In this document: one piece after another, positions 666 through 34,867 of the stretch
Numbering within the stretch: the stretch's first letter is position 1
Layout: each line of letters begins with the position of its first letter
IMG/VR virus record: IMGVR_UViG_2695420585_000012
Reading direction: 5' to 3' (one strand)
DNA: 37,418 nucleotides
Source: a virus
Taxonomy: Duplodnaviria > Heunggongvirae > Uroviricota > Caudoviricetes
The notes under the pieces: generated by a model
The model's input: the letters and a program-made list of their open reading frames with translations, nothing else
The model's database searches: none
What the model was told of the DNA's origin: nothing
Made by a program: the position numbers and the translations under genes

Positions 666-934
666 TCGTTCCTCCTGACACTGCGTCTATCGAACACATT
701 TTTCGCCAGTGTGGCGTTCAGTAAGATAAAGCCGCTTCGCATTCCATGCTAATATAGGCCAACGCAATTCATATAGCCGTTGATACCTAATGTGATTACA
801 CTAGTAAAATATATTGTTACTTTACTATCGTTTAGGTGCGCTGAATGAATCTGCGCCCTGAATTCTGGTAAAAAACATTATCGTAAATTACCATTTCTTT
901 CAACAGCTTACTAGTAAACAAGAAGTTAGCCTCC

Positions 935-2620
935 GTGAATATAAACGTCGCCGAATTGTTAAATGGGAATTACATTCTGTTATTATTTGTGGTCCTCGCG
1001 CTTGGGCTATGTCTCGGAAAGTTACGACTTGGTTCGATCCAACTGGGTAATTCCATTGGCGTTTTAGTCGTATCGCTGTTATTAGGCCAACAACATTTCA
1101 GCATTAACACCGATGCGCTTAATCTTGGCTTTATGCTGTTTATTTTCTGTGTTGGGGTTGAAGCCGGACCGAACTTTTTTTCCATTTTTTTTCGCGATGG
1201 GAAAAATTACCTAATGTTAGCACTGGTGATGGTTGGCAGTGCGCTGGTGATCGCCTTAGGGTTAGGTAAGCTGTTTGGCTGGGATATTGGCCTGACGGCC
1301 GGTATGTTAGCAGGCTCTATGACGTCGACACCGGTTCTGGTCGGTGCTGGCGATACACTGCGTCATTCCGGCATGGAAAGCAGGCAGCTCTCACTGGCAC
1401 TGGATAATCTGAGCCTCGGGTATGCCTTAACCTATTTAATCGGTCTGGTGAGTTTGATTGTTGGTGCGCGTTACTTGCCGAAATTGCAGCATCAGGACTT
1501 ACAGACCAGCGCCCAGCAAATCGCCCGCGAACGTGGCCTGGACACTGATGCCAACCGTAAGGTTTATTTACCGGTGATCCGCGCCTATCGCGTCGGCCCG
1601 GAGCTGGTGGCCTGGACCGACGGCAAAAATCTGCGTGAACTGGGTATTTATCGACAAACCGGCTGCTACATTGAACGTATTCGACGTAACGGGATTCTGG
1701 CAAATCCAGACGGTGATGCCGTGCTACAAATGGGCGATGAAATAGCGTTGGTAGGCTATCCCGACGCCCATGCCCGACTCGATCCCAGCTTCCGTAACGG
1801 TAAAGAAGTTTTCGATCGTGACCTTCTCGACATGCGTATCGTCACTGAAGAAGTGGTCGTTAAAAACCATAACGCTGTAGGTAAACGTCTCGCACAACTG
1901 AAGTTGACCGATCACGGTTGCTTCCTTAACCGCGTCATTCGTAGCCAGATTGAGATGCCGATAGATGACAACGTCGTGCTTAACAAAGGTGACGTTTTAC
2001 AAGTCAGCGGTGATGCCCGTCGCGTAAAAACCATCGCCGATCGCATCGGCTTTATCTCGATTCACAGCCAGGTCACTGACCTGCTGGCATTTTGCGCCTT
2101 CTTTGTTATTGGGCTGATGATCGGGATGATCACCTTCCAGTTCAGCACATTCAGTTTCGGCATGGGGAACGCTGCCGGGTTGTTATTCGCCGGAATTATG
2201 CTGGGCTTTATGCGTGCTAACCACCCGACCTTCGGTTACATTCCGCAGGGTGCATTAAGCATGGTGAAAGAGTTCGGCTTGATGGTGTTTATGGCAGGCG
2301 TTGGTCTGAGCGCCGGTAGCGGTATTAATAACGGCCTGGGCGCGATTGGCGGTCAGATGTTGATTGCCGGATTGATTGTCAGTCTGGTGCCCGTGGTTAT
2401 CTGTTTCTTGTTCGGTGCTTATGTATTGCGAATGAACCGCGCGCTGTTGTTCGGCGCAATGATGGGCGCACGTACCTGCGCGCCGGCAATGGAGATCATC
2501 AGTGATACAGCTCGCAGTAACATCCCGGCGCTGGGCTATGCGGGCACCTATGCAATCGCCAACGTCCTGCTGACGCTGGCAGGGACAATCATCGTCATGG
2601 TATGGCCAGGATTAGGATAA
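935..2620 (+). CDS. ybjL: Putative transporter YbjL (AAE family, two TrkA-C-like domains)
   Basis: 561-aa ORF with GTG start; membrane N- and C-terminal halves around a soluble central region; matches recalled E. coli YbjL. Confidence 0.85.
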
Positions 2621-2731
2621 AACTGAAGTTGCCCTGAAAATGAAATTTTTTTGCACAACCGCAGAACTTTTCCGCAGGGCATCAGTCTTAATTAGTGCCA
2701 CTGCTTTTCTTTGATGTCCCCATTTTGTGGA

Positions 2732-2782
2732 GCCCATCAACCCCGCCATTTCGGTTCAAGGTTGATGGGTTTTTTGTTGCCT
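2732..2782 (+). terminator. Rho-independent terminator downstream of ybjL
   Basis: CCCATCAACC...GGTTGATGGG stem followed by TTTTTT; lies between the host gene and the prophage end. Confidence 0.55.
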
Positions 2783-2855
2783 GAAATTTATGCCTTTTAA
2801 AATCATGATGTTAGAAGCGCTGTTTTTTAACGATGGCGACAAATTGGCGGCAGCG

Positions 2856-3074
2856 TCAAAGAGAGAGCGCCACCTGTCCTGATTTCATTGGATGCGGCTG
2901 AACCGGATTTGACTCTTTTGGCGTTGCAATCGAACGAACAAAAGTTTCATGGGTAACAAAAGTATGGCTGCAGTTAATGTTCTGGCACTGGTTGTAACGC
3001 TCTTTGGTCAATGAAGATACCTGAAAACTGCTGCGAGTATGGGCGGCACTTCCACACAGTGGGCAAATCATCAT
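2856..3074 (-). CDS. ogr: Ogr/Delta-type zinc-finger late-gene transcription activator
   Basis: About 72 aa from internal Met (MMICPLCG...) with CxxC...CxxxxC pattern resembling P2 Ogr; GGGGAGA Shine-Dalgarno upstream; the 83-aa track ORF probably over-extends. Confidence 0.8.
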   Translation of the reverse strand: MMICPLCGSAAHTRSSFQVSSLTKERYNQCQNINCSHTFVTHETFVRSIATPKESNPVQPHPMKSGQVALSL

Positions 3075-3164
3075 TTTTCGAGTTCTCCCCATTTTTGCTA
3101 AATTCACAATAATGATACCGCATTATTCCATTTTGAAAACTTAAAAGTTCTCCATTACGAAGAA

Positions 3165-4265
3165 TCATTCCATTTCGAAATCATCAATCTTCACTTCAAG
3201 CTCCAGACTGGTCGTAAAACCGTTATCCGGGCTGACGGTATGTGTCAGAGTCGTAATGGTCCATTCCGCATCATCTATCGGCTGTTTAAAACCACTGACC
3301 TTCACAGGCATTTCCGTGTAGAGATCTGCCCGCCCTTCCGCCAGTTGTAGCGAGAATGACGCAACGCCGCGTTGCAGGCGTTCCCACTGCATTTTTGCCG
3401 CTCGTTCGGCGTTGCTCCGGTTGGCATAAGTGCGATTAAGTACCAGCACGTTTTCATCCGTCCCCACCAGGTAATCGCCCTGCTTCGCTTCCGGCTCTTT
3501 CTTCTGCTTCTTAGTCCTGCGCTTACGCTTCACCGTAGTGCTTTCTTTCTTCGCGGGTTCGCGGGTATGCAACCAGCTGGCAATTACGCCCGTATAGGCT
3601 CCGCGATCTGCCAGGGTAAAGCGGTGACTGTCGCCGTCCTTGCGTGTGATAGTGATCACCGGCAGAGGTTTACCGCTGGCGCTTTTGCCCTGTCCCTGCC
3701 GGATGAATAACAGATTGCCATTTTTCACCGACGCGATGGCACCGTACTGTCGCGCCAGCCGCATCAGAAAACTGCCGTCACTCTCATTGGTCTGGTCTAT
3801 ATGTTCCACGGGTTTATCTGACAGGTCTTTACCCAGTGCCATCTTCAGTTTGTGCCGCGCAGCTATTTCCTTCACCACTTCCCCAACGGTGGTCTTGTGC
3901 CACGACTTTTCACGACGGGTATTCAGCGTTTCACGAAAATCAGCACTTCGCGCCCGGATAGTCAGGCGGTCCGGTGCGCCAGTGTGTTCAATCTCGTCCA
4001 CCGTGAATGCCCCTTTCGGGAAAAGCGGCTGCCCCTTCCAGCCCAGCGCCAGCGTAATGACCGCACCACGGCGCGGCAGCACGATTTTTCCATCGGCGTC
4101 GTCCAGCTCCAGATCAAGCTGGTCCGCTTCAAAGCCCCGGTTATCTGTCAGCGTCAGCCCCATCAGGCGGTTGTCCAGCACAGTGGTGATATCCCTGCCT
4201 TCAATACTGATGCTGAATGCCGGAGTTTTGTTGCCTTTGTTAAGCAGTTCAGAGCTGAAATTCAC
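3165..4265 (-). CDS. D: Tail protein gpD
   Basis: 366-aa ORF with P2 gpD-like sequence and position (last late gene before ogr). Confidence 0.85.
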   Translation of the reverse strand: MNFSSELLNKGNKTPAFSISIEGRDITTVLDNRLMGLTLTDNRGFEADQLDLELDDADGKIVLPRRGAVITLALGWKGQPLFPKGAFTVDEIEHTGAPDRLTIRARSADFRETLNTRREKSWHKTTVGEVVKEIAARHKLKMALGKDLSDKPVEHIDQTNESDGSFLMRLARQYGAIASVKNGNLLFIRQGQGKSASGKPLPVITITRKDGDSHRFTLADRGAYTGVIASWLHTREPAKKESTTVKRKRRTKKQKKEPEAKQGDYLVGTDENVLVLNRTYANRSNAERAAKMQWERLQRGVASFSLQLAEGRADLYTEMPVKVSGFKQPIDDAEWTITTLTHTVSPDNGFTTSLELEVKIDDFEME

Positions 4266-4747: not shown

Positions 4748-7700
4748 GCGTCGTATCCCCCCTGATCGCTGTAGTTACTCCTGGCTTTTGCCTTCAGCCT
4801 GCGTTCACGTTCATCAAGCTGGCGTGCCACCTCCCGCGCAATATCCTGCGCACTTTGTCCTGGCTGCGTCTGGATGATGATCTGCGTCGGTGCCTCAATC
4901 CGGTGAACGGGCGGCACAGCAGCTACGCGACTCACCATCGCTTCACCGCCTTTCGCGGGAAGCGCCAAAGGATGCAACGGTGGAAGCTCTGCTGGCGCGG
5001 CAGCAACTCCCATCATTCCGGCGACAACCGCAGCCAGTGCAGCGGTATTTCTCCGGCTGGTCACGTTTGCCGGACCGTTGACAATTTCCGGCCCGTTTTC
5101 ACCGACAATGCCGAACTGCCCGCGCGGGATATAGCCGCCGCTGTCATACATCCCCGCAAAGCCATATCCCCATGACGGAAAACCACCCGATGGCATCATC
5201 ACTTTACCGTCTGCATTCACCGTCGCAGGTTGCTGACGCGTCACGCTTTCCGGCAGTTTCGCCTTTGCAGCCTCTTTACTGACAATGCCGAGTTTCTCCA
5301 GCAACCAGGAAACGCCGGATTTCAGGGAGTCCAGCGGATGCATGACCATATTCAGCCCTTCTGCCAGTGCCTCCCCGAATCGTCGCCCCATTGCCGCTGC
5401 GCTCTGCAGTTCGGCAGAGGTCGACTTAACGGGCGTCAGCAGATCAGTAAACCAGCCCCACAGCGCCTGCACTTTGTCGCCAATCCACTGGAACACGGGC
5501 TTAAGCGGTTCGAACGCTGCACTGATGGGACCTGCCGCCGCTTTGAATCCTTCCACCACGCCACCGAGAAATGCGGTGATGGGTTGCCAGTATTTCCAGA
5601 CAACCAGCGCCACGCCCGCCAGTGCAGTAACCACAAGACCTATCGGACTGAGCAGAGCACCTAACAGACCAGATATGGCATACAGGGTAACGCGCAGCAT
5701 CGCCAGTGGACCAGATGCCAGTACTCGCAGCACCGTGCCTGCGGCGGCCAGTCCACCGCGCAGTACCGCCAGAGGATTCATAAACATCACAGCAACAGCA
5801 CGTAAACCGGATAATCCAGACCGCAAAAGTGCAACCGGCGCACCTGCTACAGTTTTCAGGACATTTCCCGTCAGTGATGCCGTGCGGCGCAAAGACGACA
5901 ACGGCGCAGTAAGTAAACCTGCGGCGTTGCCCGATGAAGCAAGCCCGCGTCGCAGCAGTGCCAGTGGTGCGCCAGCCAGCCAGGACAACGCGCTGCTTGT
6001 TCGAGTTACTGCTGCCGTAACGGAAGGTAACGTTTTGATACCCAGCACAGAGAATCCCAGACGGATCACTGCCAGCGGCCCCAGCACTGCAGCCAGCGCC
6101 ACCGCTAAGGTGCCGAGGCCGACGGTAACCGCAGCCACAACAGCCGATGCTTTCATCAGTGTGCCTGTCAGTTCCGGGTTAGCTTCCACCCAGCGACGCA
6201 ACGCCCCCGTGACGCTTTTCACCGTGTACAGAATATCCATCAGCGGCTGGCGCAGCGTTTCGCCCAGGCTGCTGAAGGTGTTCTGCGCTCCGGTTTTGAC
6301 CAGCAACCACTGCGCAGAAAGTGAATCCTTGTTAATGTCGGATTCTTTCTGCATGGAGCCGAGCGCATCATTGCCCGCTGTCAGTTTTAACTGACGCTGC
6401 AGTTCCGGCAGGTTGTTTGCCAGTTTCGCCGCGTCATCGCCAAACTCTTTACCAAACAACATAGTCATGGCAGACAGACGCTTGTCCTGCGGCAGCGCGT
6501 TTACCTTCTCCAGCACGCGCTGGATGGTTCCCATCGCATCCTTCGTCATCTGCTTTTCAATCACTTCAGGATTGAGTTTCAGCAGATTCATCCCTTCAAA
6601 GAAACTCTTGCTTTGCATGGTGGCAATGGACAATTCACGCACCATCGCGTTTGCTGCACTGGCTGCAACCTCTGGCGCAGCGCCCAGTGTCAGGAAGGTG
6701 GAACCCAGCGCCGCCGCTTTACGATAATCCAGACGGTCAGCCACACCGCCCAGACGTTGCATCACATCAATGATGTCTGCCCCTTTCGACATGGCGTTAT
6801 CATCCAGATAGTTCAGCGCATCACCGAGCTGTTCAATATTGCGGGTGGGGATTTTGTAGAGCTGGGCGATTTTCCCCAGACTTTCTGACAGTTCATCCGC
6901 TGGCAGCTCAAAGGCTGTTGCCGCCTTTGCTGCCGTACTGGCGAAGGCCAGCAGGTCACGTTTCTGATCTTCCCAACTGTCGTCAGGGTTTGCGACGTTC
7001 ATGCGCGCACCACCTTCAACCAGTGCAGCGAAATCCACCGCACCGTTTTCCATCGGCAACTGTTCGCTGGCAGCCTTGATGGCATCCTGCATTTCATAAA
7101 AACGTGCAGTGCGGTTGCCATTATCGTCACGCAGACCATTGACCTGCTTTGCCACACCTTTCATGGCATCTTCCATGCTGGTATAGCTTTTTACTGCCGC
7201 CATCACTGGTGCGCCCATTGCCAGCCCTGCAGCCGTGGTGGTGGCTCCGGCACCTGCAATACGATCACGCACCTCCAGCGAACGGGCATAACTGGCACGC
7301 GCTGCATTCATCCTGCGCTGAGCTTCCCCCAGTCGCTTCAGCCGCGCCTCCTGTTTCGAAAGTTCCTGGTTATAACGTGATGTTTCACGGGCTAAACGGG
7401 CAGTTGCTCCCGCATCGTCTTTCGCAGAAATTCCCGCCCGGTACAGTTCAGCACGCACAAGCGCCGTCTGCTGCTGCAGCTTTTTCTGGCGTTCTTCCAG
7501 GCGCTGAACAGCCAGCCGTTGACGGCCCAGAGCAACAACCTGACGTTGCGAAGGCGGCCCCATCGCTCCCAGTTCCTGACTGAGCAAATTTGCACGCTGG
7601 CGGGCATAGTTCAGCCTGTCGCCTAATTTCTGATTTTCTGCCTGCAGCTTTCGGAAGCTGTCCAGACTGCTCCCGGCCTGATCAAGCTGCTTTATTGCAT

Positions 7701-7821
7701 CGCGGGATTTTTTGACAGCAGCAGCCAGTTCTCTTGAACTGGCCTGCGCAGATCGAAATGGGCGGGTGAGCTTGTCAACCGCATTAAGAATGACCTGCAG
7801 ACGCAGGTTGTTATCACTCAT
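4744..7821 (-). CDS. T: Tail tape measure protein gpT
   Basis: 1025-aa Ala/Gly/Leu-rich ORF with coiled-coil N-terminus and repeated PLAxLRxGL-like motifs; directly follows E/E'. Confidence 0.85.
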   Translation of the reverse strand: MSDNNLRLQVILNAVDKLTRPFRSAQASSRELAAAVKKSRDAIKQLDQAGSSLDSFRKLQAENQKLGDRLNYARQRANLLSQELGAMGPPSQRQVVALGRQRLAVQRLEERQKKLQQQTALVRAELYRAGISAKDDAGATARLARETSRYNQELSKQEARLKRLGEAQRRMNAARASYARSLEVRDRIAGAGATTTAAGLAMGAPVMAAVKSYTSMEDAMKGVAKQVNGLRDDNGNRTARFYEMQDAIKAASEQLPMENGAVDFAALVEGGARMNVANPDDSWEDQKRDLLAFASTAAKAATAFELPADELSESLGKIAQLYKIPTRNIEQLGDALNYLDDNAMSKGADIIDVMQRLGGVADRLDYRKAAALGSTFLTLGAAPEVAASAANAMVRELSIATMQSKSFFEGMNLLKLNPEVIEKQMTKDAMGTIQRVLEKVNALPQDKRLSAMTMLFGKEFGDDAAKLANNLPELQRQLKLTAGNDALGSMQKESDINKDSLSAQWLLVKTGAQNTFSSLGETLRQPLMDILYTVKSVTGALRRWVEANPELTGTLMKASAVVAAVTVGLGTLAVALAAVLGPLAVIRLGFSVLGIKTLPSVTAAVTRTSSALSWLAGAPLALLRRGLASSGNAAGLLTAPLSSLRRTASLTGNVLKTVAGAPVALLRSGLSGLRAVAVMFMNPLAVLRGGLAAAGTVLRVLASGPLAMLRVTLYAISGLLGALLSPIGLVVTALAGVALVVWKYWQPITAFLGGVVEGFKAAAGPISAAFEPLKPVFQWIGDKVQALWGWFTDLLTPVKSTSAELQSAAAMGRRFGEALAEGLNMVMHPLDSLKSGVSWLLEKLGIVSKEAAKAKLPESVTRQQPATVNADGKVMMPSGGFPSWGYGFAGMYDSGGYIPRGQFGIVGENGPEIVNGPANVTSRRNTAALAAVVAGMMGVAAAPAELPPLHPLALPAKGGEAMVSRVAAVPPVHRIEAPTQIIIQTQPGQSAQDIAREVARQLDERERRLKAKARSNYSDQGGYDA

Positions 7822-8250
7822 CGTTGGCCCCGCTTCTCTGAATCGCTTTATACCGCCATTCCAGCACTTCGGTCAGCGGCATAACGTCAGTAACGGATGG
7901 CGGCCAGTGAAAGATGGTGGCGATATCAGCCACCAGATCGTCAACCGTCAGGCTGTCGGTAAACCGGCAAGCACCGACTTCTTCAACAAAAAAGTGACAA
8001 CCTCAACCGACATGGCAGTGAGATCTGCCGGGTCCATCTCTGCAATTTCCTGTGCAGTCAGTGCCGGACTGGAGATGCGGGGGATCACGGTCATCATCGC
8101 GTTCACATCCATATCCATAATGGCCTGCAGGCGTGTACCGCGCAGCGCACCGGACTGCGGTTTACGCAGCACAATTTCGGTAATTTCTGTTTTACCGCGC
8201 TTGATAGGGGTATCCAGTTGAATGGTCTTTTCAGTCTGCTTATCGCTCAT
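7814..8250 (-). CDS. E+E': Tail assembly chaperone E+E' (-1 programmed frameshift product)
   Basis: TTTTTTG heptamer at about 7985-7991 in the E frame; the -1 frame is then open for 57 codons and stops at TGA overlapping the T start codon. Confidence 0.6.
7948..8250 (-). CDS. E: Tail assembly chaperone gpE
   Basis: 100-aa ORF upstream of T; ends ...VTFLLKKSVLAGLPTA with the slippery heptamer inside its 3' end. Confidence 0.8.
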   Translation of the reverse strand: MSDKQTEKTIQLDTPIKRGKTEITEIVLRKPQSGALRGTRLQAIMDMDVNAMMTVIPRISSPALTAQEIAEMDPADLTAMSVEVVTFLLKKSVLAGLPTA

Positions 8251-8304
8251 TTTGTTGTCCTGTAAATTAGGTTCTGGCGCGGAATCCCGCGCCGTTCAGA
8301 TACA

Positions 8305-8820
8305 TCAGAGGCCGAGGGCGTTGCGGTGCGCTTCCATCAGGTCCACACCGTCCACAATTTCCACCATGTTGATAAGGTCCACTTCATAGAGCACCTCACC
8401 ATTGATGGTCAGCTTCGCGTAGCTGTTGGTACTGGTCACTTTGGTGGTGTTGCTTTCGCCCGTCTTCCACTCACCGGAATCCACTTCTTTGTGACGTCCA
8501 CGCACCACAAGCTCCACGGCCTGCACTTCCCCGGTATCGTCACGCTGGATAGAGCCGGTAAAGCGCAACTGGATGCCATCCACCGTGGCTTTGCCCATCT
8601 GCTTAAACAGCAGCAGTTCAGTACCACCAATGGTAAATTCTGTGTCCAGCGCACTGTCATCAAGCCCCAGATCCACATCCACTGCCCCCGGCATTCCGCC
8701 ACCGCGATACTTCTCATATTTGCGGGTGAATTTCGGCAGCGTCAGCGACTCAACGATCCCCTGCCAGTTGTTCCCGTCGTTAAACAGGTTCAGGTGTTTT
8801 AATTTGCGTGGTAAAGCCAT
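8305..8820 (-). CDS. FII: Tail tube protein gpFII
   Basis: 171-aa ORF, P2 FII-like sequence and position. Confidence 0.9.
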   Translation of the reverse strand: MALPRKLKHLNLFNDGNNWQGIVESLTLPKFTRKYEKYRGGGMPGAVDVDLGLDDSALDTEFTIGGTELLLFKQMGKATVDGIQLRFTGSIQRDDTGEVQAVELVVRGRHKEVDSGEWKTGESNTTKVTSTNSYAKLTINGEVLYEVDLINMVEIVDGVDLMEAHRNALGL

Positions 8821-10097: not shown

Positions 10098-10144
10098 AAT
10101 GACGGTATTTGTCTGCTTGCAGGGATAATCAAAATAATGCTGAT

Positions 10145-10720
10145 TCAGGGGGATTCATTACTCTTATTTGCCGGAAATTTTCTATAAATTGTGGAAACAC
10201 CCACATCAAAAATCAGTGCAATACGCTGTCTTGATTCTCCGGCCTCGAGTAAACGCCCAATCTGTGCCCACTGTTCGGTGGTCAACTTAGGACGGCGTCC
10301 ACCTATTCTGCCTTTGGCACGAGCTGCTGCAGCCAGCCCTGCCCTGGTACGTTCAACTATCAGTTCGCGTTCCATTTCAGCCAGGGCACCCATGACATGA
10401 AAAAAGAAACGGCCCATTGGGGTACTGGTATCAATACTGTCAGTCAGGCTTCTGAAATTCACACCACGCTGGCGCAACTCTTCTATCAGCGTAACAAGAT
10501 GCCGCATACTGCGCCCCAACCTGTCCAGCTTCCAGACAACCAGCGTGTCTCCTGCCGATAGTGTCCTGAGTAGTTTTTTCAGCCCCGGTCTGTCGGACTT
10601 AGTGCCACTGATTTTGTCCTCAAAAATCCGCTCACATCCCGCGCAGTTCAGTGCATTACGTTGCAAATCGGTGTTCTGGTCATTTGTTGACACGCGTACA
10701 TAGCCAATAAGCATGATCAT
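10145..10720 (-). CDS. Serine DNA invertase (Hin/Gin/Pin/Cin family)
   Basis: 191-aa ORF; N-terminal resolvase catalytic region (GYVRVSTNDQ) and C-terminal HTH; adjacent to an inverted-repeat-bounded fibre segment. Confidence 0.85.
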   Translation of the reverse strand: MIMLIGYVRVSTNDQNTDLQRNALNCAGCERIFEDKISGTKSDRPGLKKLLRTLSAGDTLVVWKLDRLGRSMRHLVTLIEELRQRGVNFRSLTDSIDTSTPMGRFFFHVMGALAEMERELIVERTRAGLAAAARAKGRIGGRRPKLTTEQWAQIGRLLEAGESRQRIALIFDVGVSTIYRKFPANKSNESP

Positions 10721-10781
10721 CCCCCTGAATAAAAACCGGAGATGATGCCAGTTAGCTGTTACCTCTGCATTTTCTTAAACG

Positions 10782-10803
10782 TTGGTTTGGGAGAAGCGGC
10801 AAA
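10782..10803. repeat. Left inverted repeat / gix-like crossover site of the invertible segment
   Basis: 22-bp perfect inverted repeat with 12288-12309; lies within a hix/gix-like sequence TTCTTAAACGTTGGTTTGGGAGAA. Confidence 0.7.
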
Positions 10804-11128
10804 AATGTCTGCCGCTGCACTTGTCATTAACGGTAATACGTTGACAGCAAAAATCCCGGTAGTTATTAACGGCGTTAACAGGGAGTTTATTATTCAGGCA
10901 TCTCAGATATCCAGCTCAGCAAGCAATGGTGTTATTACCTTCCCATCCGCATTTCCAAATGCGTGTATTGCGATTTTTGCGCATGACTTTGCGACAGCGT
11001 CTACGGATTTATCGAATGTTCGGTTCTATATGCCAGGAAGAACATCAGCATCATGGACAGGGCAAAATATGAGTACAGGTAGTGAATCATCACCTGCAGC
11101 ATGGTGTTGGCTGGCAATTGGCTGGTAA
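10804..11128 (+). CDS. Promoterless alternative tail-fibre C-terminal module (Sv'-like), currently in the silent orientation
   Basis: Plus-strand ORF reading through the left repeat in the same codon phase (GLGEAAK) as H reads through the right repeat; inversion would fuse it to the constant part of H. Confidence 0.6.
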
Positions 11129-11548
11129 ATGGAGAAAACAATGAAGTATTTTACATCTGCTCCGGTTGCTCTTTATAACTCCGATATATCCTCTTATATA
11201 CCCGGTGACGCAGTAGAAATCAGTGATGAAGTATATAACGCACTTATTGCTGGTCAGGAGGCAGGAAAGAATATTACGGCAGACAGTAACGGACTGCCTG
11301 TACTGGCAGAACCCGCACAACCAACTCATGATGAATTGGTTGCAGCATCTGAATTAATGAAACAGCATCTGATTGATGCTGCTATGGCTTCCATCAGTCT
11401 GATTCAACTGAAATTGCAGGCCGGACGTAAATTGACGCAGGCAGAAACAACCCGGCTTAACGCTGTGCTGGATTACATTGACGCAGTGACGGCAACAGAT
11501 ACCAGCACCGCGCCGGATGTCATCTGGCCTGAACTGCCGGAGGCGTAG
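11129..11548 (+). CDS. Tail fibre assembly chaperone for the alternative fibre (Tfa')
   Basis: 139-aa ORF inside the invertible segment; convergent with and overlapping the 3' end of the G-like gene; same domain layout as the G-like protein. Confidence 0.75.
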   Translation: MEKTMKYFTSAPVALYNSDISSYIPGDAVEISDEVYNALIAGQEAGKNITADSNGLPVLAEPAQPTHDELVAASELMKQHLIDAAMASISLIQLKLQAGRKLTQAETTRLNAVLDYIDAVTATDTSTAPDVIWPELPEA

Positions 11549-11939
11549 GCCATTCAATATCTGGCGCACCGGAAGTATCGACCAGTTCCAGTGCGTCCAG
11601 GTAATCCAGCCACAAATTATATTGTGCCAGTTCCTCACCTTTCAGCCGGCCAATAGCCGCTTTACCAGGCCATTGTTTACTGTTCATATAATCGTTGGCC
11701 TGTTCAATAAGTATATTTTTCATTCCCTCCGCTTCAGCTATTTCCTGTTCATGTGTCTTCGCTGGATATTCAGTAAGTACAGGGTAGTTATCCGGGCTAT
11801 TGATAATAATTTTCCCCGTACTCTGACCATTCATAAGTTCATAATAAAGAGCATCTTCAATATCGAAAGCATCATCGGGAATATCGCTGTTGTTTTCAGA
11901 GAAAAATCCCTGAACAGATGGGGACCATTTCATTTTCAT
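11520..11939 (-). CDS. G: Tail fibre assembly chaperone gpG
   Basis: 139-aa ORF directly downstream of H with overlapping stop/start. Confidence 0.8.
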   Translation of the reverse strand: MKMKWSPSVQGFFSENNSDIPDDAFDIEDALYYELMNGQSTGKIIINSPDNYPVLTEYPAKTHEQEIAEAEGMKNILIEQANDYMNSKQWPGKAAIGRLKGEELAQYNLWLDYLDALELVDTSGAPDIEWPTPPAVQAR

Positions 11940-13357
11940 AATTTCCCAATTCCTAAAATATGGACATCATCAGCCTTACGGGCATTCCAGGTGACAGTTA
12001 CATCGGTAGAGTTATGATTAACTGAGATTGCGTATGCTTCGTTAGTCGCGCCAGAAACTTTTGTGGCAAACACAGCAAACAGGACACCAAATGACTGGGG
12101 CCATTTATAGCCTGACAGCTGATAATTACCATTATCCAGTGTTACAGCTTTGACTGCTGCACTTGATGGAATCTTCAGCCACTGGAGTATCAACCCTCCT
12201 GGCAAAAGTTGTTTTCCATAAAAATCCCTCACACCACTAAATGAAACCATATCCGGTATCTGATTTTCCCCTGTTCCCACCCCCCGTTTTGCCGCTTCTC
12301 CCAAACCAAGGTATGCGAGAAGACCAGCTACATCCTTTCCACTCAAATTGGTAAGCGTATTGTCCAGCGGTTGTTTACCTGCCAGCGCATTAAGCATTGT
12401 CGTGGCAAAGTTCGGATCATTCCCCAGTGCCGCCGCCAGTTCGTTCAGTGTATCCAGTGCAGCAGGTGCAGAACCCACCATTCCTGCAATCGCCGATTTC
12501 ACAAAAGCCGTAGTGGCAATCTGTGTATTGTTGACCGACTGCGCCGCCGTGGGGGCTGTTGGCGTTCCGGTGAGTGCCGGACTCGACAACGGTGCTTTTA
12601 GTGCCAGCGCATTGTTAATGGTGGTACTGAAATTCGGATCATTGTTAATGGCTGCGGCTATTTCTTTCAGCGTGTCCAGCGTGGCTGGCGCACCATTAAT
12701 AAGGGCCGTCAGTGCCGCCTGTACAAACGCAGTGGTCGCAACCTGCGTGGTATTATTCCCCGCCGCTGGCGTTGGCGCTTTGGGGGTTCCGGTAAATGTC
12801 GGGCTGGCTTTTGGCGCGTACTGTGAATGCGGGTCCGGTGCGGCAAGATGTTTTGCCATCTGATCATCCGCGTACACCTTCAGCTCCAGTGCCTTGTCAT
12901 CCACATACTTGCGGGTTGCCAGCACTACAGCAGGGTCGATTTTCAGGGTGATATTGTCCGTGCTGCTGGTAATCAGCACCATGCGCACGGTCTGAGTGCG
13001 CCCGCTACCTTCAGCCAGTTGCGGCTTATAGCTTTCCGGGCAGTTGCCCACGGCAATCAATGCCCCGGACTCATCAAACAAGCCCACTTCACGTATCCAC
13101 CAACCGCCCTCGTTTTCAGGGATCACCTGTTCGGCAATAATCTGGCTGCTGTTCTGCGGGTCGATATAAAGCATATTCAGCGCAGCCCGGCGTTTCTCAT
13201 TTACCAGTGCCGTCTGCTTTGCGTCCGGCGTTGGCAATACTCCACCGCCATCGCCCACCGCCATATGGGTAATTTTTAGCGGCACACCGAGCGCGGCGGC
13301 GCTGGCAAGTTTCGCCGCGCCAATATCCGTCAGCAGGGTATAAAATTTTGTGCTCAT
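11936..13357 (-). CDS. H: Tail fibre protein gpH (current 'on' orientation)
   Basis: 473-aa ORF with P2 gpH-like N-terminus (MSTKFYTLLTDIGAAKL); C-terminal 116 aa encoded inside the invertible segment. Confidence 0.85.
   Translation of the reverse strand: MSTKFYTLLTDIGAAKLASAAALGVPLKITHMAVGDGGGVLPTPDAKQTALVNEKRRAALNMLYIDPQNSSQIIAEQVIPENEGGWWIREVGLFDESGALIAVGNCPESYKPQLAEGSGRTQTVRMVLITSSTDNITLKIDPAVVLATRKYVDDKALELKVYADDQMAKHLAAPDPHSQYAPKASPTFTGTPKAPTPAAGNNTTQVATTAFVQAALTALINGAPATLDTLKEIAAAINNDPNFSTTINNALALKAPLSSPALTGTPTAPTAAQSVNNTQIATTAFVKSAIAGMVGSAPAALDTLNELAAALGNDPNFATTMLNALAGKQPLDNTLTNLSGKDVAGLLAYLGLGEAAKRGVGTGENQIPDMVSFSGVRDFYGKQLLPGGLILQWLKIPSSAAVKAVTLDNGNYQLSGYKWPQSFGVLFAVFATKVSGATNEAYAISVNHNSTDVTVTWNARKADDVHILGIGKL
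12288..12309. repeat. Right inverted repeat / crossover site of the invertible segment (inside H)
   Basis: Reverse complement of 10782-10803; encodes GLGEAAK of H. Confidence 0.7.
12368..12808 (-). repeat. Tandem duplication (2 x ~73 codons) within the tail-fibre shaft
   Basis: H residues ~184-256 and ~257-330 repeat (…TGTPxAPTxA…NxTQxATTAFV…APAxLDTL…NDPNFxTT…NALAxK…). Confidence 0.6.
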
Positions 13358-21799: not shown

Positions 21800-23566
21800 A
21801 TGAACACCACACTGACACCCGCAGATCTCGATCCCCGTCGGCAGGCCATGCTGCTGTACTTTCAGGGATACCGCGTAGCCCGCATTGCTGAAATGCTGGG
21901 CGAGAAAGTTGCAACCGTTCACAGCTGGAAAAAACGCGACAAGTGGGGTGACTATGGGCCGCTGGATCAGATGCAGCTCACCACCGCCGCACGCTACTGC
22001 CAGCTCATTATGAAGGAGCACAAAGAAGGGAAAGATTTCAAAGAGATTGACCTGCTGGCGCGCCAGTCGGAGCGCCACGCGCGGATCGGCAAGTTTAACA
22101 ATGGCGGCAACGAAGCCGACTTAAACCCTAACGTCGCCAACCGCAACAAAGGCCCGCGCCGTCAGCCGGAAAAGAATGTTTTCACCGATGAGCAGATTGA
22201 GAAGCTGGAAGAAATCTTCCATTCCTCCATGTTCAACTACCAGCGCCACTGGTGGGAAGCCGGAAAAGCCAACCGCATCCGCAACCTGCTGAAGTCACGC
22301 CAGATCGGCGCGACCTTTTACTTTGCCCGTGAAGCCCTGATTGACGCCCTGCTTACCGGACGTAACCAGATTTTCCTTTCCGCCAGTAAGGCACAGGCCC
22401 ACGTCTTTAAACAGTACATCATCGACTTCGCCAAAGAAGTGGAGGTGGAGCTGAAAGGCGATCCGATGGTGCTTCCCAACGGGGCCACTCTTTACTTCCT
22501 CGGCACCAATGCCCGCACGGCCCAGAGTTACCACGGCAACCTGTATCTGGATGAATATTTCTGGATACCGAAATTCCAGGAGCTGCGCAAAGTGGCTTCC
22601 GGTATGGCTATTCACAAAAAATGGCGACAAACCTATTTTTCCACGCCATCCAGCCTGACCCACAGTGCTTATCCGTTCTGGTCCGGTGCGCTGTTCAACC
22701 GTGGACGCAACAAAGCCGACAAGGTGGACATCGACCTGTCCCATAGCAATCTGGCCCCCGGCCTGCTGTGCGCAGACGGGCAATACCGCCAGATAGTCAC
22801 CGTGGAAGATGCGGTGCGCGGCGGCTGTAACCTGTTCGACCTTGACCAGTTGCGCATGGAGTACAGCCCGGACGAATACCAGAACCTGCTGATGTGCGAG
22901 TTCGTGGACGATCTCGCGTCCGTGTTCCCGCTCAGCGAGCTGCAGGCGTGCATGGTGGACAGCTGGGAAGTCTGGACCGACTTTCATGCTCTGGCCCTGC
23001 GCCCGTTTGGCTGGCGCGAAGTGTGGATCGGTTATGACCCGGCAAAAGGTACGCAGAACGGCGACAGCGCCGGATGCGTGGTGGTGGCACCGCCAGCCGT
23101 GCCGGGCGGTAAGTTTCGCATTCTTGAGCGTCACCAGTGGCGCGGGATGGACTTCCGCGCCCAGGCTGACGCAATCAAAAAACTGACCGAGCAGTACAAC
23201 GTGACCTACATCGGCATCGACTCAACCGGCGTTGGTCACGGGGTTTACGAGAACGTGAAAGCGTTCTTTCCTGCCGTCCGGGAGTTTGTCTACAACCCCA
23301 ACGTTAAAAACGCCCTGGTACTCAAGGCCTACGACATTATCAGCCACCGCCGTCTGGAGTTTGACGCCGGACATACCGACATTGCGCAGTCATTCATGGC
23401 AATCCGTCGCGCCACCACCGCCAGCGGCAACCGCCCGACCTATGAAGCCAGCCGCAGCGAAGAAGCCAGCCATGCCGATCTGGCCTGGGCAACAATGCAC
23501 GCACTGTTTAACGAACCGCTGCAGGGCGAGTCCGCCAATACCAGCAATATTGTGGAGATTTTTTGA
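21800..23566 (+). CDS. P: Terminase large (ATPase) subunit gpP
   Basis: 588-aa ORF, P2 gpP-like; divergent from O and overlapping Q start. Confidence 0.9.
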   Translation: MNTTLTPADLDPRRQAMLLYFQGYRVARIAEMLGEKVATVHSWKKRDKWGDYGPLDQMQLTTAARYCQLIMKEHKEGKDFKEIDLLARQSERHARIGKFNNGGNEADLNPNVANRNKGPRRQPEKNVFTDEQIEKLEEIFHSSMFNYQRHWWEAGKANRIRNLLKSRQIGATFYFAREALIDALLTGRNQIFLSASKAQAHVFKQYIIDFAKEVEVELKGDPMVLPNGATLYFLGTNARTAQSYHGNLYLDEYFWIPKFQELRKVASGMAIHKKWRQTYFSTPSSLTHSAYPFWSGALFNRGRNKADKVDIDLSHSNLAPGLLCADGQYRQIVTVEDAVRGGCNLFDLDQLRMEYSPDEYQNLLMCEFVDDLASVFPLSELQACMVDSWEVWTDFHALALRPFGWREVWIGYDPAKGTQNGDSAGCVVVAPPAVPGGKFRILERHQWRGMDFRAQADAIKKLTEQYNVTYIGIDSTGVGHGVYENVKAFFPAVREFVYNPNVKNALVLKAYDIISHRRLEFDAGHTDIAQSFMAIRRATTASGNRPTYEASRSEEASHADLAWATMHALFNEPLQGESANTSNIVEIF

Positions 23567-24603
23567 TGGGAAAGAGTAAGAAAAACCGCGCTGCGGCGAC
23601 GAATCAGATCCAGTATAAAAAACAAACTTCAGCCGAAGCATTCAGCTTCGGTGATCCCGTTCCTGTTCTGGACCGCCGCGAATTACTGGACTATGTGGAA
23701 TGCGTACAGATGGACCGCTGGTACGAGCCACCCGTAAGTTTTGACGGACTGGCGCGAACATTCCGCGCCGCCGTACACCACAGTTCACCAATTGCAGTGA
23801 AATGCAACATTCTGACCAGTACCTACATCCCTCACCCGCTGCTCAGCCAGCAGGCTTTTTCACGTTTTGTGCAGGACTATCTGGTATTTGGTAACGCCTA
23901 CCTGGAGAAACGCACGAACCGCTTCGGTGAAGTTATCGCCCTTGAACCTGCCCTGGCAAAATACACCCGACGCGGATTAGACCTGGATACCTACTGGTTT
24001 GTGCAATACGGCATGACCACGCAACCGTATCAGTTCACGAAAGGCAGCATTTTTCACCTGATGGAACCGGACATCAACCAGGAGATCTACGGCCTGCCCG
24101 GTTATCTTTCTGCCATTCCGTCAGCCCTGCTCAACGAGTCCGCCACGCTGTTCCGCCGAAAGTATTACATTAACGGCAGTCATGCTGGCTTCATCATGTA
24201 CATGACCGATGCTGCGCAGAACCAGGAGGATGTGAACAACCTCCGCAACGCAATGAAAAGCGCCAAAGGTCCAGGCAACTTCCGCAACCTGTTTATGTAC
24301 TCACCTAACGGCAAAAAGGATGGTCTTCAGATTATCCCGTTGTCAGAAGTCGCGGCAAAGGATGAATTTCTGAACATCAAAAATGTTAGTCGCGATGACA
24401 TGATGGCCGCGCATCGTGTTCCGCCACAGATGATGGGGATTATGCCGAATAATGTTGGGGGTTTTGGGGATGTGGAGAAGGCTAGTCTTGTATTTGTTCG
24501 CAATGAATTGATGCCACTACAGAAGCGACTACATGAACTAAACGAATGGGTGGGTGCAGAAGTAATACATTTTGATGACTATGTTTTAGGTGTTCAGGAA
24601 TAA
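23563..24603 (+). CDS. Q: Portal protein gpQ
   Basis: 346-aa ORF, P2 gpQ-like. Confidence 0.9.
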   Translation: MMGKSKKNRAAATNQIQYKKQTSAEAFSFGDPVPVLDRRELLDYVECVQMDRWYEPPVSFDGLARTFRAAVHHSSPIAVKCNILTSTYIPHPLLSQQAFSRFVQDYLVFGNAYLEKRTNRFGEVIALEPALAKYTRRGLDLDTYWFVQYGMTTQPYQFTKGSIFHLMEPDINQEIYGLPGYLSAIPSALLNESATLFRRKYYINGSHAGFIMYMTDAAQNQEDVNNLRNAMKSAKGPGNFRNLFMYSPNGKKDGLQIIPLSEVAAKDEFLNIKNVSRDDMMAAHRVPPQMMGIMPNNVGGFGDVEKASLVFVRNELMPLQKRLHELNEWVGAEVIHFDDYVLGVQE

Positions 24604-24649: not shown

Positions 24650-24988
24650 TTAACAAACAGCGTATAAACCATCAAATCCAACGGAATGAACCTTTTTTGA
24701 TGCTACTTCATTGCTACGGCGTTGGATCACTTTTGCAATACTTTTTAAAATTGAAGGGGATGCATTGCGAACCTTAACCTGACTCAAAACTTTGGTTACA
24801 CCGAATTTCACTACCAAAACACCAAAGATTTCATCAGAGTATGATTCTGAAATTGAATAAACACCGCTCAGGTCTAAATCTACGGTATACCCTTCTTTAA
24901 TGAACCCTTCAATCTTGTGTCGTTGGGGGATAGCCTGATTGCGCGAAGCCAGGTCACCCTCGGGTAACTTGTATGCGATTTTGTTCAT
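24650..24988 (-). CDS. STAS-like (anti-sigma-factor-antagonist-like) small protein, cargo
   Basis: 112-aa ORF whose start overlaps the stop of the upstream ATPase gene; central DLSGV...SISESYSDEIFGVL segment resembles STAS/DUF4325-type domains (recalled, not searched). Confidence 0.45.
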   Translation of the reverse strand: MNKIAYKLPEGDLASRNQAIPQRHKIEGFIKEGYTVDLDLSGVYSISESYSDEIFGVLVVKFGVTKVLSQVKVRNASPSILKSIAKVIQRRSNEVASKKVHSVGFDGLYAVC

Positions 24989-25962
24989 TACTCTCCTCCT
25001 AACGCCCGCATTATTTCCATAAGCTGAGGGTCATTTTCTTCGCTATCTTTATCGACTGCCAGTTCATGAATCTTAAAACGGCAAGAAATTGCTACACCCG
25101 GCCATTCAGTACGTAATTCAGTATAGCTCACTTCATCACCTATTGCTTCTAAGCATACATTTCCTGAAGCCAGTTGCAATTCCCCATTATATGTTTTTAT
25201 CAATTTCATCAAGTGATATAACCCAAGCCCTTGATGATTATTATCTTTTTCTTTGACCGAAACCCCGTGACCAAACACACTACCCCCAATAAAATCCTGG
25301 GGAAGTTGCTGTGCCCAATCATCCTGCAAATCAGCATGCTTAGATGAATGTCCCTCTTGAATACACCATGCGATCGCATCCTGGTGAGTCTCAATTCCGG
25401 GTATACCAGCTCGCCGCAATTCTCGGAGAAATCCTAACCCACAGTCCGCCAAAGAAAATTCTAAATAGTGCTCTTTTCTTTGTGTGTGGGGTACAGCCGA
25501 ACGTTGTGCAAAAGAAAAACCCGTTGATTTTCCATGCGACCAAACGTTATCGTGAAGCTCACCTATAACATGTGTTAGATCTGTAAGTCCCTTGGGATAA
25601 TCTCTCGGATCACGATCAGGGAATGTTAACTGCCTTACACAACTGTTAATACTACCAGTGGCAACGTCAACAGCTTCAACATTGGTTAATGCTGTAACCA
25701 AACTGTAATTTCTCCCAACATTTACACGTTCCTGTTGATACTGATCCTCGCCCCATAAAGCACCATGTAAATTGATAGCTCGCATATAGTCAGGGCATGA
25801 CAAAACGCAGTTATCTTCGGTAATTTTGTGATGATTCACGTAAGCTGCTAAGACAGTGATAAAACCAGGATGCCAATGGTTGTTTGGCAATTGCAATTCA
25901 TTAGTTTCCTTTTGATGAAACGCAGCGGTATGCACAATAGCGTCTTTTAATCCTAACCCCAT
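24988..25962 (-). CDS. GHKL/Bergerat-fold ATPase (histidine-kinase-like, RsbW/SpoIIAB-type) with N-terminal extension, cargo
   Basis: Visible N-box ELHDNVWSH, G1 box DCGLG and G2 box GLGLYHL; lower GC than structural genes. Confidence 0.6.
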   Translation of the reverse strand: MGLGLKDAIVHTAAFHQKETNELQLPNNHWHPGFITVLAAYVNHHKITEDNCVLSCPDYMRAINLHGALWGEDQYQQERVNVGRNYSLVTALTNVEAVDVATGSINSCVRQLTFPDRDPRDYPKGLTDLTHVIGELHDNVWSHGKSTGFSFAQRSAVPHTQRKEHYLEFSLADCGLGFLRELRRAGIPGIETHQDAIAWCIQEGHSSKHADLQDDWAQQLPQDFIGGSVFGHGVSVKEKDNNHQGLGLYHLMKLIKTYNGELQLASGNVCLEAIGDEVSYTELRTEWPGVAISCRFKIHELAVDKDSEENDPQLMEIMRALGGE

Positions 25963-25991
25963 GAACCGAACCTTTTTTATGCATTTTTCTT

Positions 25992-26020
25992 ATCATATAA
26001 CTTAGGACTGATCAGCGCAA
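25992..26020 (-). promoter_or_regulatory. Possible sigma70 promoter for the ATPase/STAS operon
   Basis: On the minus strand TTGCGC, 17-nt spacer, TATGAT, about 30 bp upstream of the ATPase start. Confidence 0.3.
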
Positions 26021-26075
26021 AGATCCCGACACTCTTGAATCATACTAAATTAAGGCATATACCACACAGCGCGCG

Positions 26076-26094
26076 CTCGTATCCCCGCCACGCC
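26076..26094 (-). other. cos: Candidate cos site (cohesive-end sequence)
   Basis: Minus strand reads GGCGTGGCGGGGATACGAG followed by CGCGCGCTG, closely matching the recalled P2/186 ends (GGCGAGGCGGGGAAAGCAC followed by TGCGCGCTG). Confidence 0.35.
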
Positions 26095-26294
26095 TGCCCA
26101 CTTTATGTAGTGGTTTTCATGCACCTGCATGACATAAGCAAAAGCACGCCAGTTCTGGCTGGCATCAGCGAAAACGATCGTCATACTATCATGCGATCTC
26201 ATGCGCCATATGAAGTTTTCCTGACACAGCCTTGGGTTGGGATAACACCTAACTCAGGAAGATTTTTTGTGTGTTTGTAACCCACACCTAGAGT

Positions 26295-34865: not shown

Positions 34866-34867
34866 AC

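Follow-up and report, generated by a model that had tools for sequence, protein, structure and literature searches.

A two-state Pin/Gin-type inversion switch, very probably functional, in the tail-fibre operon of an apparently complete 186/P2-type Escherichia coli prophage

The tail-fibre region considered here is part of a window of 37,418 nucleotides, the whole stretch of DNA that was analysed, whose P2/186-type set of virion and replication genes is apparently complete. A sequence-only reading had described a serine invertase gene beside a segment of roughly 1.5 kb, and both are borne out by the Pfam domains of the protein (Resolvase and HTH_7) and by a segment length of 1,528 bp. The features of the locus, with their coordinates and strands, are the following.

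10145..10714, minus strand: gene for a serine DNA invertase (189 aa) of the Pin/Cin/Gin family (Pfam, the Mu Gin structures and a Pin/Cin/Gin alignment)
10625..10696, minus strand: homologue of a Fis-dependent recombinational enhancer, nt 19-90 at the 5' end of the invertase gene (homology to the P1 Cin enhancer)
10770..10795, plus strand: invertase-side 26-bp crossover site, TTTTCTTAAACG-TT-GGTTTGGGAGAA, core at 10782-10783 (aligns with gix, cixL and pix)
10782..12309, no strand: invertible segment, 1,528 bp including its 23-bp repeats (perfect inverted repeats at 10782-10804 and 12287-12309)
10805..11128, plus strand: silent alternative tip (tip B), 107 residues, in frame with the repeat (Pfam Gp53-like_C, E 1.2e-10)
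11129..11548, plus strand: silent alternative chaperone gene, cognate to the silent tip (Pfam Caudo_TAP, E 3.4e-23)
11520..11939, minus strand: tail-fibre assembly chaperone gene (gpG/Tfa type) in the expressed position, cognate to the expressed tip (Pfam Caudo_TAP, E 2.4e-22)
11936..12286, minus strand: variable H tip in the expressed position (tip A), the 116 residues after GLGEAAK (94.8% identity with the tip that Escherichia phage Cartapus expresses)
12296..12321, minus strand: H-side 26-bp crossover site, TTCTCGCATACC-TT-GGTTTGGGAGAA on that strand, core at 12308-12309
12310..13357, minus strand: constant N-terminal part of H (P2 gpH type), outside the segment and collinear in both isomers (Pfam Phage_tail_fib N-terminal domain, E 5e-65)

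The segment is bounded by a perfect inverted repeat, as had been claimed, with a length that comes to 23 rather than 22 bp and an imperfect extension to 35 bp (10770-10804 and 12287-12321). No perfect inverted repeat in the window whose arms lie within 3 kb of each other is longer; in 30 shuffled versions of the window, repeats of this kind came to 12-16 bp. The crossover sites at the two ends are of the 12-2-12 kind, with 12-bp imperfect half-sites around a 2-bp core, and stand in inverted orientation; the proposed comparison with known crossover sites aligns them with gix, cix and pix. The core reads TT in both sites when taken from outside to inside, and the P1 record annotates the crossover point of cixL at the equivalent dinucleotide. 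The H-side site lies within the H coding sequence, in the codons for LGLGE, and the alignments of natural inversion isomers have their breakpoints there, while the invertase-side site shares 26/26 positions with its counterpart in a P2-type locus of EPEC E2348/69. A 19-nt site pattern allowed up to three mismatches finds two matches in the whole window, with none expected from 100 shuffles. The switch is a simple two-state one, and a multi-site system such as a shufflon, Min of p15B or the four-state P2 locus of EPEC was ruled out, as there are only two sites even with three mismatches.

The complete H gene (11936-13357, minus strand) encodes 473 aa, of which 116 follow GLGEAAK, and its stop codon is overlapped by the start of the chaperone gene at 11520-11939. 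The silent tip module has neither a start codon nor a promoter of its own. As the sequence-only reading had it, the two chaperone genes are convergent and overlapping (by 29 nt, both of them Caudo_TAP); they are 38% identical to each other, and no similarity between the two tips is detectable (E 12). Both tips read through the repeat in a common frame, GLGEAAK, and inversion of the segment in silico yields an uninterrupted H of 464 aa, which agrees with the earlier description of two alternative C-terminal modules in the same codon phase. Of the sizes then proposed for the exchange, the 116 residues after GLGEAAK stand and the alternative of about 108 is corrected to 107. Compared with 50,697 phage records, tip A matched Cartapus and, weakly, a Cronobacter phage (34% identity), tip B matched no deposited phage, and a receptor clue emerged for neither.

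The open reading frame of the invertase extends over 10145-10720, with an upstream ATG at 10720 and a second ATG at 10714. The latter is the likely start, because Gin, Cin and Pin all begin MLIGY and only the 189-aa form is found in public databases; an exact protein look-up there recovered this form, on 58 public contigs, and did not recover the 191-aa form. The protein has an N-terminal catalytic Resolvase domain (E 5.7e-52) and a C-terminal helix-turn-helix, HTH_7 (E 1.4e-15), matches the Mu Gin structures 3UJ3 and 4M6F from end to end (E 1e-91), and has 86% identity with Pin, 78% with Cin and 74% with Gin. The label of Gin/Hin type, under which the segment had been described, is thus right as to close kinship with Gin, Cin and Pin, and is to be refined in that the nearest system is Pin/pix of e14 and not Gin or Hin. 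The reading frame is full length, and the catalytic Ser9 together with Y5, R7, R42, D64, R65 and R68 is invariant in the alignment of the four proteins. In the same alignment, Q151, R154 and L155 are invariant columns, and K46, K47 and R50 are the counterparts of Hin basic residues 47, 48 and 51. In Hin, Q151, R154 and L155 and the basic residues 47, 48 and 51 are named in PMC3798978 as residues specific to Fis/enhancer-dependent invertases.

The only anomaly of the invertase is an in-frame additional alanine at about residue 128, at the C-terminal end of helix E (AGL-AAAA-RAKG). The spacing from ERT to GRxGGR is 11 residues in the window's protein against 10 in 119/120 family representatives (the 119 being those of the 120 that were matched by the spacing motif), and the helix-E spacing of gamma-delta resolvase is of Gin-like length. 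The alanine run that the insertion extends adjoins the flexible arm of the enzyme.

In the P1 record, nt 19-90 of cin are annotated as the Cin enhancer. The four invertase genes align over this stretch without gaps, and there the window has 88% identity with pin, 78% with cin and 72% with gin. A canonical Fis-type 15-mer, GNNYRNNWNNYRNNC, is present at 10630-10644, and each of the four genes matches it at nt 71-85; a degenerate Fis motif did not pick up the other Fis site expected, making one found of the two. Where the amino acid is invariant, the four genes use the same codon at 5 of 19 positions inside the enhancer interval and at 7 of 70 outside it, a comparison that is suggestive only, since coding conservation confounds enhancer conservation. 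The homologue lies about 90-100 bp from the nearer crossover site, and by homology the window's invertase would depend on Fis and the enhancer. Scans for consensus sigma-70 promoters of the invertase over 10715-10850 on the minus strand found nothing convincing; upstream of Mu gin there is a sole weak sigma-70 match (8/12), which overlaps gix, and the window reads GAAAAT at the equivalent position. Also in this region, at 10753-10734 on the minus strand, is a weak hairpin resembling a terminator, which on inspection of the sequence is apparently not kept as a hairpin in e14.

A search for both orientations had been proposed in the sequence-only reading, and public genomes contain both. When complete E. 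coli genomes were searched with the whole locus by megablast, one record had at least 80% coverage, and the exact cassette pair in the window's orientation was absent from that collection; junction-specific queries and exact-protein look-ups were then used. The junction as it stands in the window occurs in 23 complete E. coli genomes, and the silent tip occupies the expressed position, at 97.5-99.8% identity, in three complete genomes. In E. coli IZSBS22 the flanks are collinear with those of the window and the entire segment is inverted, at 97.5% identity. Among the 24 longest contigs with the invertase allele, all the fully flanked places listed had the window's orientation, similar places having been collapsed, which could hide flipped isomers, and the predicted fusion protein was therefore looked up directly. 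The exact 464-aa flipped H was found on 6 contigs and the 473-aa H on 44, a skew that could reflect biased or rare switching. Sources of the isomers include SRR22201892 and GCA_958329345.1 for the window's orientation, and SRR35394479, ERR15416037 and SRR14099310 for the inverted one.

The clearest of these cases is a public contig, L016, which aligns with the in-silico inverted window over 11,395 bp at 100.00% identity with 0 mismatches, such that inversion of exactly 10782-12309 reproduces it, with an identical invertase allele. Since nothing else differs over 11.4 kb, the inversion must have been very recent relative to point mutation. Several of the flipped contigs are independent, and two more contigs (L015 and L021) end at or within the switch, as would be expected from mixed-orientation reads. 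A single orientation combined with a lesion that inactivates the invertase had been put forward as evidence that would speak against a switch; instead, both isomers occur and the flipped isolates carry the allele with the extra alanine too. That the isomers are found in different isolates suggests ongoing switching in the strain of the window.

With the anatomy of the locus, the kinship of the invertase and the two natural isomers in hand, the region can with considerable confidence be read as a functional two-state inversion switch of the Pin/Gin type that an apparently complete 186/P2-type prophage of E. coli carries in its tail-fibre operon. The mechanism is already known, being the textbook one of invertase-driven tail-fibre switching, which has been shown experimentally in E. 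coli P2-type prophages. In the window, transcription of H would come from outside the segment, the constant part of the gene ending in a 26-bp crossover site, and the module of tip and chaperone adjoining the H-side site would be expressed, while the other, lacking a start and a promoter, would stay silent. The adjacent serine invertase would bind both inverted 26-bp sites and, by homology, act with Fis on the enhancer in the 5' end of its own gene; cutting at the central TT/AA dinucleotide would be followed by rotation of half of the complex and religation. The interval 10782-12309 would in this way be flipped, taking H from 473 aa to 464 aa with an unrelated tip and that tip's own chaperone, and a population of lysogens would release particles of two receptor specificities. 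Host range would, by analogy, depend on orientation.

It is quite unlikely, though conceivable, that the inversion is real and that its selected function serves the bacterial host, through retargeted tail-like particles or fibre-derived proteins that block adsorption. There is a precedent in PinQ and PinR of cryptic prophages, which are reported to give rise to fibre-derived proteins that block the adsorption of other phages (PMC12529663; bioRxiv 10.1101/2025.03.28.646004). A deletion derivative, contig L017, would also fit, as it keeps the fibre switch region and no longer has the invertase or the tail genes from the sheath to D. The window itself, however, has its apparently complete virion and replication gene set, and the free phage Cartapus has the same arrangement. 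The equivalent switches in Mu and P1, moreover, have an established role in host range.

A second alternative concerns the extra alanine, which might cripple the resident invertase and leave the flipping to another Pin-family invertase acting in trans, such as Pin of e14 or that of another prophage. The departure from the family spacing described above, which gamma-delta resolvase does not share, is in keeping with this, as is the inner half-site common to the window's sites and e14 pix. Gin, Cin, Pin and Hin can substitute for one another, and the invertase region is matched in some form in more than half of the complete E. coli genomes. Yet the allele is intact in all other respects, persists on 58 contigs and is carried in both orientations, the insertion lies beside the flexible arm, where a one-residue shift may be tolerated, and nothing in the data points to a second invertase in the hosts, all of which makes such a division of labour very unlikely. 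A broader notion, that the alanine alters the behaviour of the invertase in some manner, be it biased or slower switching or the need for a second invertase in trans, seems unlikely, and slowed or biased switching would be consistent with the 44:6 skew in orientation. If the effect were true, the lineage would offer a natural experiment in which the length of the linker from helix E to the arm sets the geometry of a DNA invertase.

The remaining alternative is a fossil switch, in which the two orientations stem from rare past events, possibly RecA-dependent at the 23-bp repeats, with no useful rate at present; the fully flanked places listed among the 24 longest contigs and the 44:6 skew would agree with it, but it is judged highly improbable in view of the recent inversion in L016, the independent flipped contigs, the breaks of L015 and L021 at or inside the switch, repeats shorter than an efficient RecA substrate, and breakpoints at a canonical invertase site identical to one that flips in culture and is itself skewed, 93:7.

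The two-state switch favoured here has some practical bearing, as the prophage of the window is present in dozens of public assemblies and in both orientations. For annotation, it means that one genome can specify two valid fibre proteins, and that what look like 'extra' tail-protein fragments are silent cassettes; for assembly, that such loci can break short-read assemblies at the repeats. The two tips are in effect ready-made, interchangeable receptor-binding modules with matched chaperones, of use in phage engineering and in phage-host prediction.

Among known systems, P2 shares the tail-gene order V-W-J-I-H-G ... FI-FII-E-T-U-D with the window and, as had been pointed out before, lacks the switch: the place between G and FI is taken by the lysogenic-conversion gene fun(Z), and there is no invertase and no second cassette. 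In Salmonella, the cluster 'serine-type DNA invertase Fin' is 84% identical to the window's invertase in a comparison made at the protein level, and Fin is encoded by the P2-like prophage Fels-2. A pair of DNA invertases is reported to have a part in the phase variation of flagella in LT2 (Kutsukake et al. 2006, cited in PMC4272514).

The G segment of Mu with Gin and the C segment of P1 with Cin follow a common logic with the window, in which the constant part of the fibre is outside, the variable part and chaperone are inside, the sites are 12-2-12 and the enhancer, in the window its homologue, is within the invertase gene. Their segments, at about 3 kb in Mu and 4.2 kb in P1, carry much longer variable parts than the 1,528 bp of the window, the core is TC in Mu and TT in the window, and the invertase gene faces the site with its 5' end in the window, in Mu and in e14, but in P1 it is the 3' end of cin that adjoins cixL. 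The phages also belong to different groups, Muvirus for Mu and Punavirus for P1 as against Peduoviridae.

In EPEC E2348/69, the P2-type loci have the switch where the window has it, with the fibre genes on one side and the sheath gene FI on the other. The simple locus there (2977580-2979467), the one whose invertase-side 26-bp site is identical to the window's, was seen by sequencing in both orientations inside clonal cultures, in a ratio of 93:7 (Goldberg et al. 2014, PMC4272514 Table S1). It has an invertase that is about 78-80% identical, a gp53-like tip and two chaperones; it is a remnant, with the constant part of the fibre truncated beside an integrase fragment, and its cassettes differ from those of the window except for part of one chaperone gene. 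The other P2 locus has three repeats and four states, unlike the two sites of the window.

The P segment of e14 in E. coli K-12, with Pin, has the closest invertase among Gin, Cin and Pin (86% identity), and its pix site is identical in the inner half-site GGTTTGGGAGAA and the TT core, with 11/12 positions shared in the invertase-side outer half-site. The genes follow one another as in the window (constant part of the fibre, tip, chaperone, chaperone, tip, invertase), the invertase gene has its 5' end beside the segment, the leader region of the invertase resembles that of the window, and the segment has been shown experimentally to flip at about 50:50 (PMC4272514). The element as a whole is a defective lambdoid remnant with different tips and a pseudogenised stfE, in contrast to the apparently complete P2/186-type prophage of the window with its intact H. 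The closest deposited phage is Escherichia phage Cartapus (Peduoviridae, Elveevirus; NC_070909), which has an identical gene order and an invertase, annotated as a Gin homologue, that is 99.5% identical and without the extra alanine; it carries a different silent cassette, and hence 71% of the query is covered.

Annotation of the window revealed a 186/P2-type prophage lying between two host genes and a truncated integrase gene, with tail genes D, U and T, tube and sheath, baseplate, capsid and terminase genes. It also encodes an origin-nicking replication initiator, a CI repressor of the 186 type and a Dam-type methylase. The minus-strand tail genes run in the order J-I-H-G, followed by the fibre switch and then FI-FII-…-T-U-D. 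In phage P2 the slot between G and FI holds fun(Z) and no invertase, in agreement with the earlier sequence-only reading, which had stated that P2 itself lacks the switch. The features are as follows.

288-665, ybjM-like host gene
935-2620, YbjL-type permease, a host gene
10145-10720, minus strand, ORF of a Resolvase and HTH_7 protein (Pfam), the invertase
10325-10336, one-alanine in-frame insertion at invertase codons ~128-131, GCT GCA GCA GCT, AAAA versus AAA
10742-11128, plus strand, ORF with a Gp53-like_C tip domain
10770-10795, invertase-side crossover site, TTTTCTTAAACG-TT-GGTTTGGGAGAA
11129-11548, plus strand, Caudo_TAP chaperone gene
11520-11939, minus strand, Caudo_TAP chaperone gene
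11936-13357, minus strand, tail-fibre gene H, with a P2-type fibre N-terminal domain
12296-12321, H-side crossover site, TTCTCGCATACC-TT-GGTTTGGGAGAA
30379-31296, D12-class (Dam-like) N6-adenine DNA methyltransferase gene, adjoining the replication gene
36366 to the window end, truncated integrase gene

The invertible segment is bounded by a perfect inverted repeat (10782-10804 and 12287-12309) within a 35-bp imperfect one. The sequence-only reading had put its length at 22 bp; the repeat itself was found, at 23 bp, and the window contains no longer perfect one with arms within 3 kb; 30 shuffles reached 12-16 bp. The two convergent, overlapping fibre-chaperone genes were confirmed (both Caudo_TAP, with a 29-nt overlap), as was the claim that the two fibre frames cross the repeat in the same phase, reading GLGEAAK. 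Inversion of 10782-12309 in silico gave an open H of 464 aa, compared with the observed 473 aa, in line with the proposed tip swap, and the alternative has 107 residues instead of about 108. These two lengths and the invertase start were all that needed correcting. No similarity was detectable between the currently expressed tip A and the silent tip B (E = 12), and the two chaperones are 38% identical.

The same prophage exists naturally as both isomers, with the inversion alone setting them apart. The check for both orientations called for earlier was run in silico on public sequences, and L016, a public contig of this prophage, matched the window with 10782-12309 inverted at 100.00% along 11,395 bp, free of mismatches and gaps; both natural isomers therefore exist. 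Further flipped contigs, L018 to L021, differed from the inverted window by 0 to 48 mismatches. Junction queries found the observed H-tip junction in 23 complete E. coli genomes and the predicted flipped junction in 3 (97.5-99.8% identity over all 401 nt), and an exact-protein look-up recovered the 473-aa H on 44 contigs and the predicted 464-aa fusion, letter-perfect, on 6. E. coli IZSBS22 is collinear with the window on either side of the segment; 10779-12312 aligns reverse-complemented (97.5%) and the inversion breakpoints overlap the repeats.

Two short-read contigs of the same prophage end at the switch, L015 (GCA_018019055.1, contig start) and L021 (GCA_049875405.1, contig end), breaking just outside the invertase-side site (window 10761) or inside the segment (window ~11545), the expected pattern for samples with reads of both orientations. 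A flipped derivative, L017 (Logan ERR1622634 contig 44, locus 7203-8405), lacks the invertase, sheath and tube genes, U, D and most of T; at its junction, ~50 bp of the segment end adjoin a 106-bp piece of T, after which come the ogr region and ybjL. The result is a tail-defective, orientation-locked remnant.

The gene beside the segment, with its start probably at 10714, proved to encode a serine invertase as claimed, matching solved Mu Gin structures (E 1e-91). It shares 86% identity with Pin of the K-12 element e14, 78% with P1 Cin and 74% with Mu Gin, and in the alignment of the four the catalytic serine and the remaining active-site columns do not vary. The equivalents of Hin Q151, R154 and L155 and of basic residues 47, 48 and 51 in helix B, named by McLean et al. 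(PMC3798978) as specific to Fis/enhancer-dependent invertases, are all conserved. Such enzymes form a very large family, with >1,900 database clusters at E ≤ 1e-60. A perfect 12-bp inverted repeat, ATTCAGGGGGAT / ATCCCCCTGAAT (10143-10154 and 10719-10730), flanks the ORF almost exactly, and one arm contains the invertase Shine-Dalgarno sequence; since shuffles of the window gave 12-16 bp, it may be meaningless.

Where helix E ends on its C-terminal side, directly before the GRIGGR arm, the enzyme carries one additional alanine (AGL-AAAA-RAKG), which looks like a triplet slip. Neither the Cartapus phage invertase (99.5% identical) nor the EPEC (E. coli E2348/69) enzyme has it, and it is also missing from Pin, Cin, Gin and three further close relatives, as well as from 119 of the 119 family representatives matching the spacing motif (120 compared). 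The insertion is genuine, since 58 public contigs carry the exact protein. The identical allele was found in the flipped isolates L016 and L019, and the extra alanine also in L018 and L020. The flipped isolates themselves carry the alanine, and the insertion has therefore not prevented inversion; there is a small chance that another Pin-family enzyme catalysed it in trans.

The proposed comparison of the repeats with known sites was made by aligning the Mu gix, P1 cix and e14 pix sites outside-to-inside with those of the window. Both window sites share the 12-2-12 layout, their core falls at the cixL crossover annotated in the P1 record, and the inner half-site and TT core of pix are identical to theirs. 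There is no third crossover site in the window, which makes this a two-state switch; a shufflon was rejected, as only two sites are present. According to the P1 record, the Cin enhancer spans cin nt 19-90, an interval over which the four invertase genes align ungapped. Its window counterpart, the putative enhancer 10625-10696, shares 88% identity with pin, 78% with cin and 72% with gin, values confounded with coding constraint. All four share a canonical Fis 15-mer (10630-10644), the one Fis site of the two expected that was resolved. Coordinate arithmetic puts the near edge of 10625-10696 ~86 bp away from the crossover core, not far from the figure of about 100 bp given for Hin in PMC3798978.

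Most likely, H would be transcribed from outside the segment with the late baseplate/fibre operon, and the module adjoining the H-side site expressed together with its own chaperone; the other module, having no start or promoter, would stay silent. The invertase, presumably dependent on Fis bound at the putative intragenic enhancer, would exchange strands at the TT/AA core and swap the modules. Promoter scans found no consensus match for the invertase promoter. Switching within cultures of the window strain is probable, and inversion may alter host range. Among deposited phages, tip A matches only Cartapus, with a weak Cronobacter-phage hit, and tip B none, and thus no receptor can be proposed.

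Elsewhere in the prophage, two ORFs between the CI repressor and the integrase (34083-35938) probably form a cargo locus for defence against phages. ORF 34868-35938 hits the PADLOC candidate defence family PDC-M11A (E 2.4e-130), and 34083-34865 weakly matches DUF3644. Between a 346-aa ORF (23563-24603), probably the portal gene, and the replication genes lie three minus-strand ORFs (24650-27464), an arrangement resembling the variable old/tin-type hotspot of P2-like phages. One is DUF4325/STAS-like (112 aa, with a weak DrmA-region match); neither of the others (324 and 389 aa) matches anything in Pfam or PADLOC.

Homology with the related loci L001 and L004 (window 10779-11713; 11477-11713) stops at the crossover sites and inside the conserved 3' termini of the overlapping chaperone pair; the cassettes therefore look like units swapped among prophages. 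Cartapus, MFDS1016424 and PCP06235 each combine one window cassette with a different partner. In the related prophage L003 (E. coli E41, NZ_CP069707.1, locus 669-3802), the same two cassettes lie in flipped orientation, with an IS1A insertion between the chaperone gene and H, a different invertase (50% identity only) and one further ORF separating invertase and segment.

Both orientations were reported within clonal cultures for e14 (51:49) and the simple P2-type locus of E2348/69 (93:7) (Goldberg et al. 2014, PMC4272514). The latter, fetched using the coordinates and repeat sequences of Table S1 there, has an invertase-side site identical to the window's (26/26 positions), an invertase ~78-80% identical and a matching gene order (tip, chaperone, chaperone, tip, invertase, sheath). 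This layout recurs in Cartapus, a Peduoviridae phage already in the databases, whose annotation names a Gin homologue. The earlier reading holds but describes something ordinary: switches of this kind are known, and this very element is found in public data. By everything that sequence can test, the switch belongs to the Pin/Gin/Cin invertible tail-fibre systems, and it is closest to e14 P/Pin and the EPEC P2-type loci.
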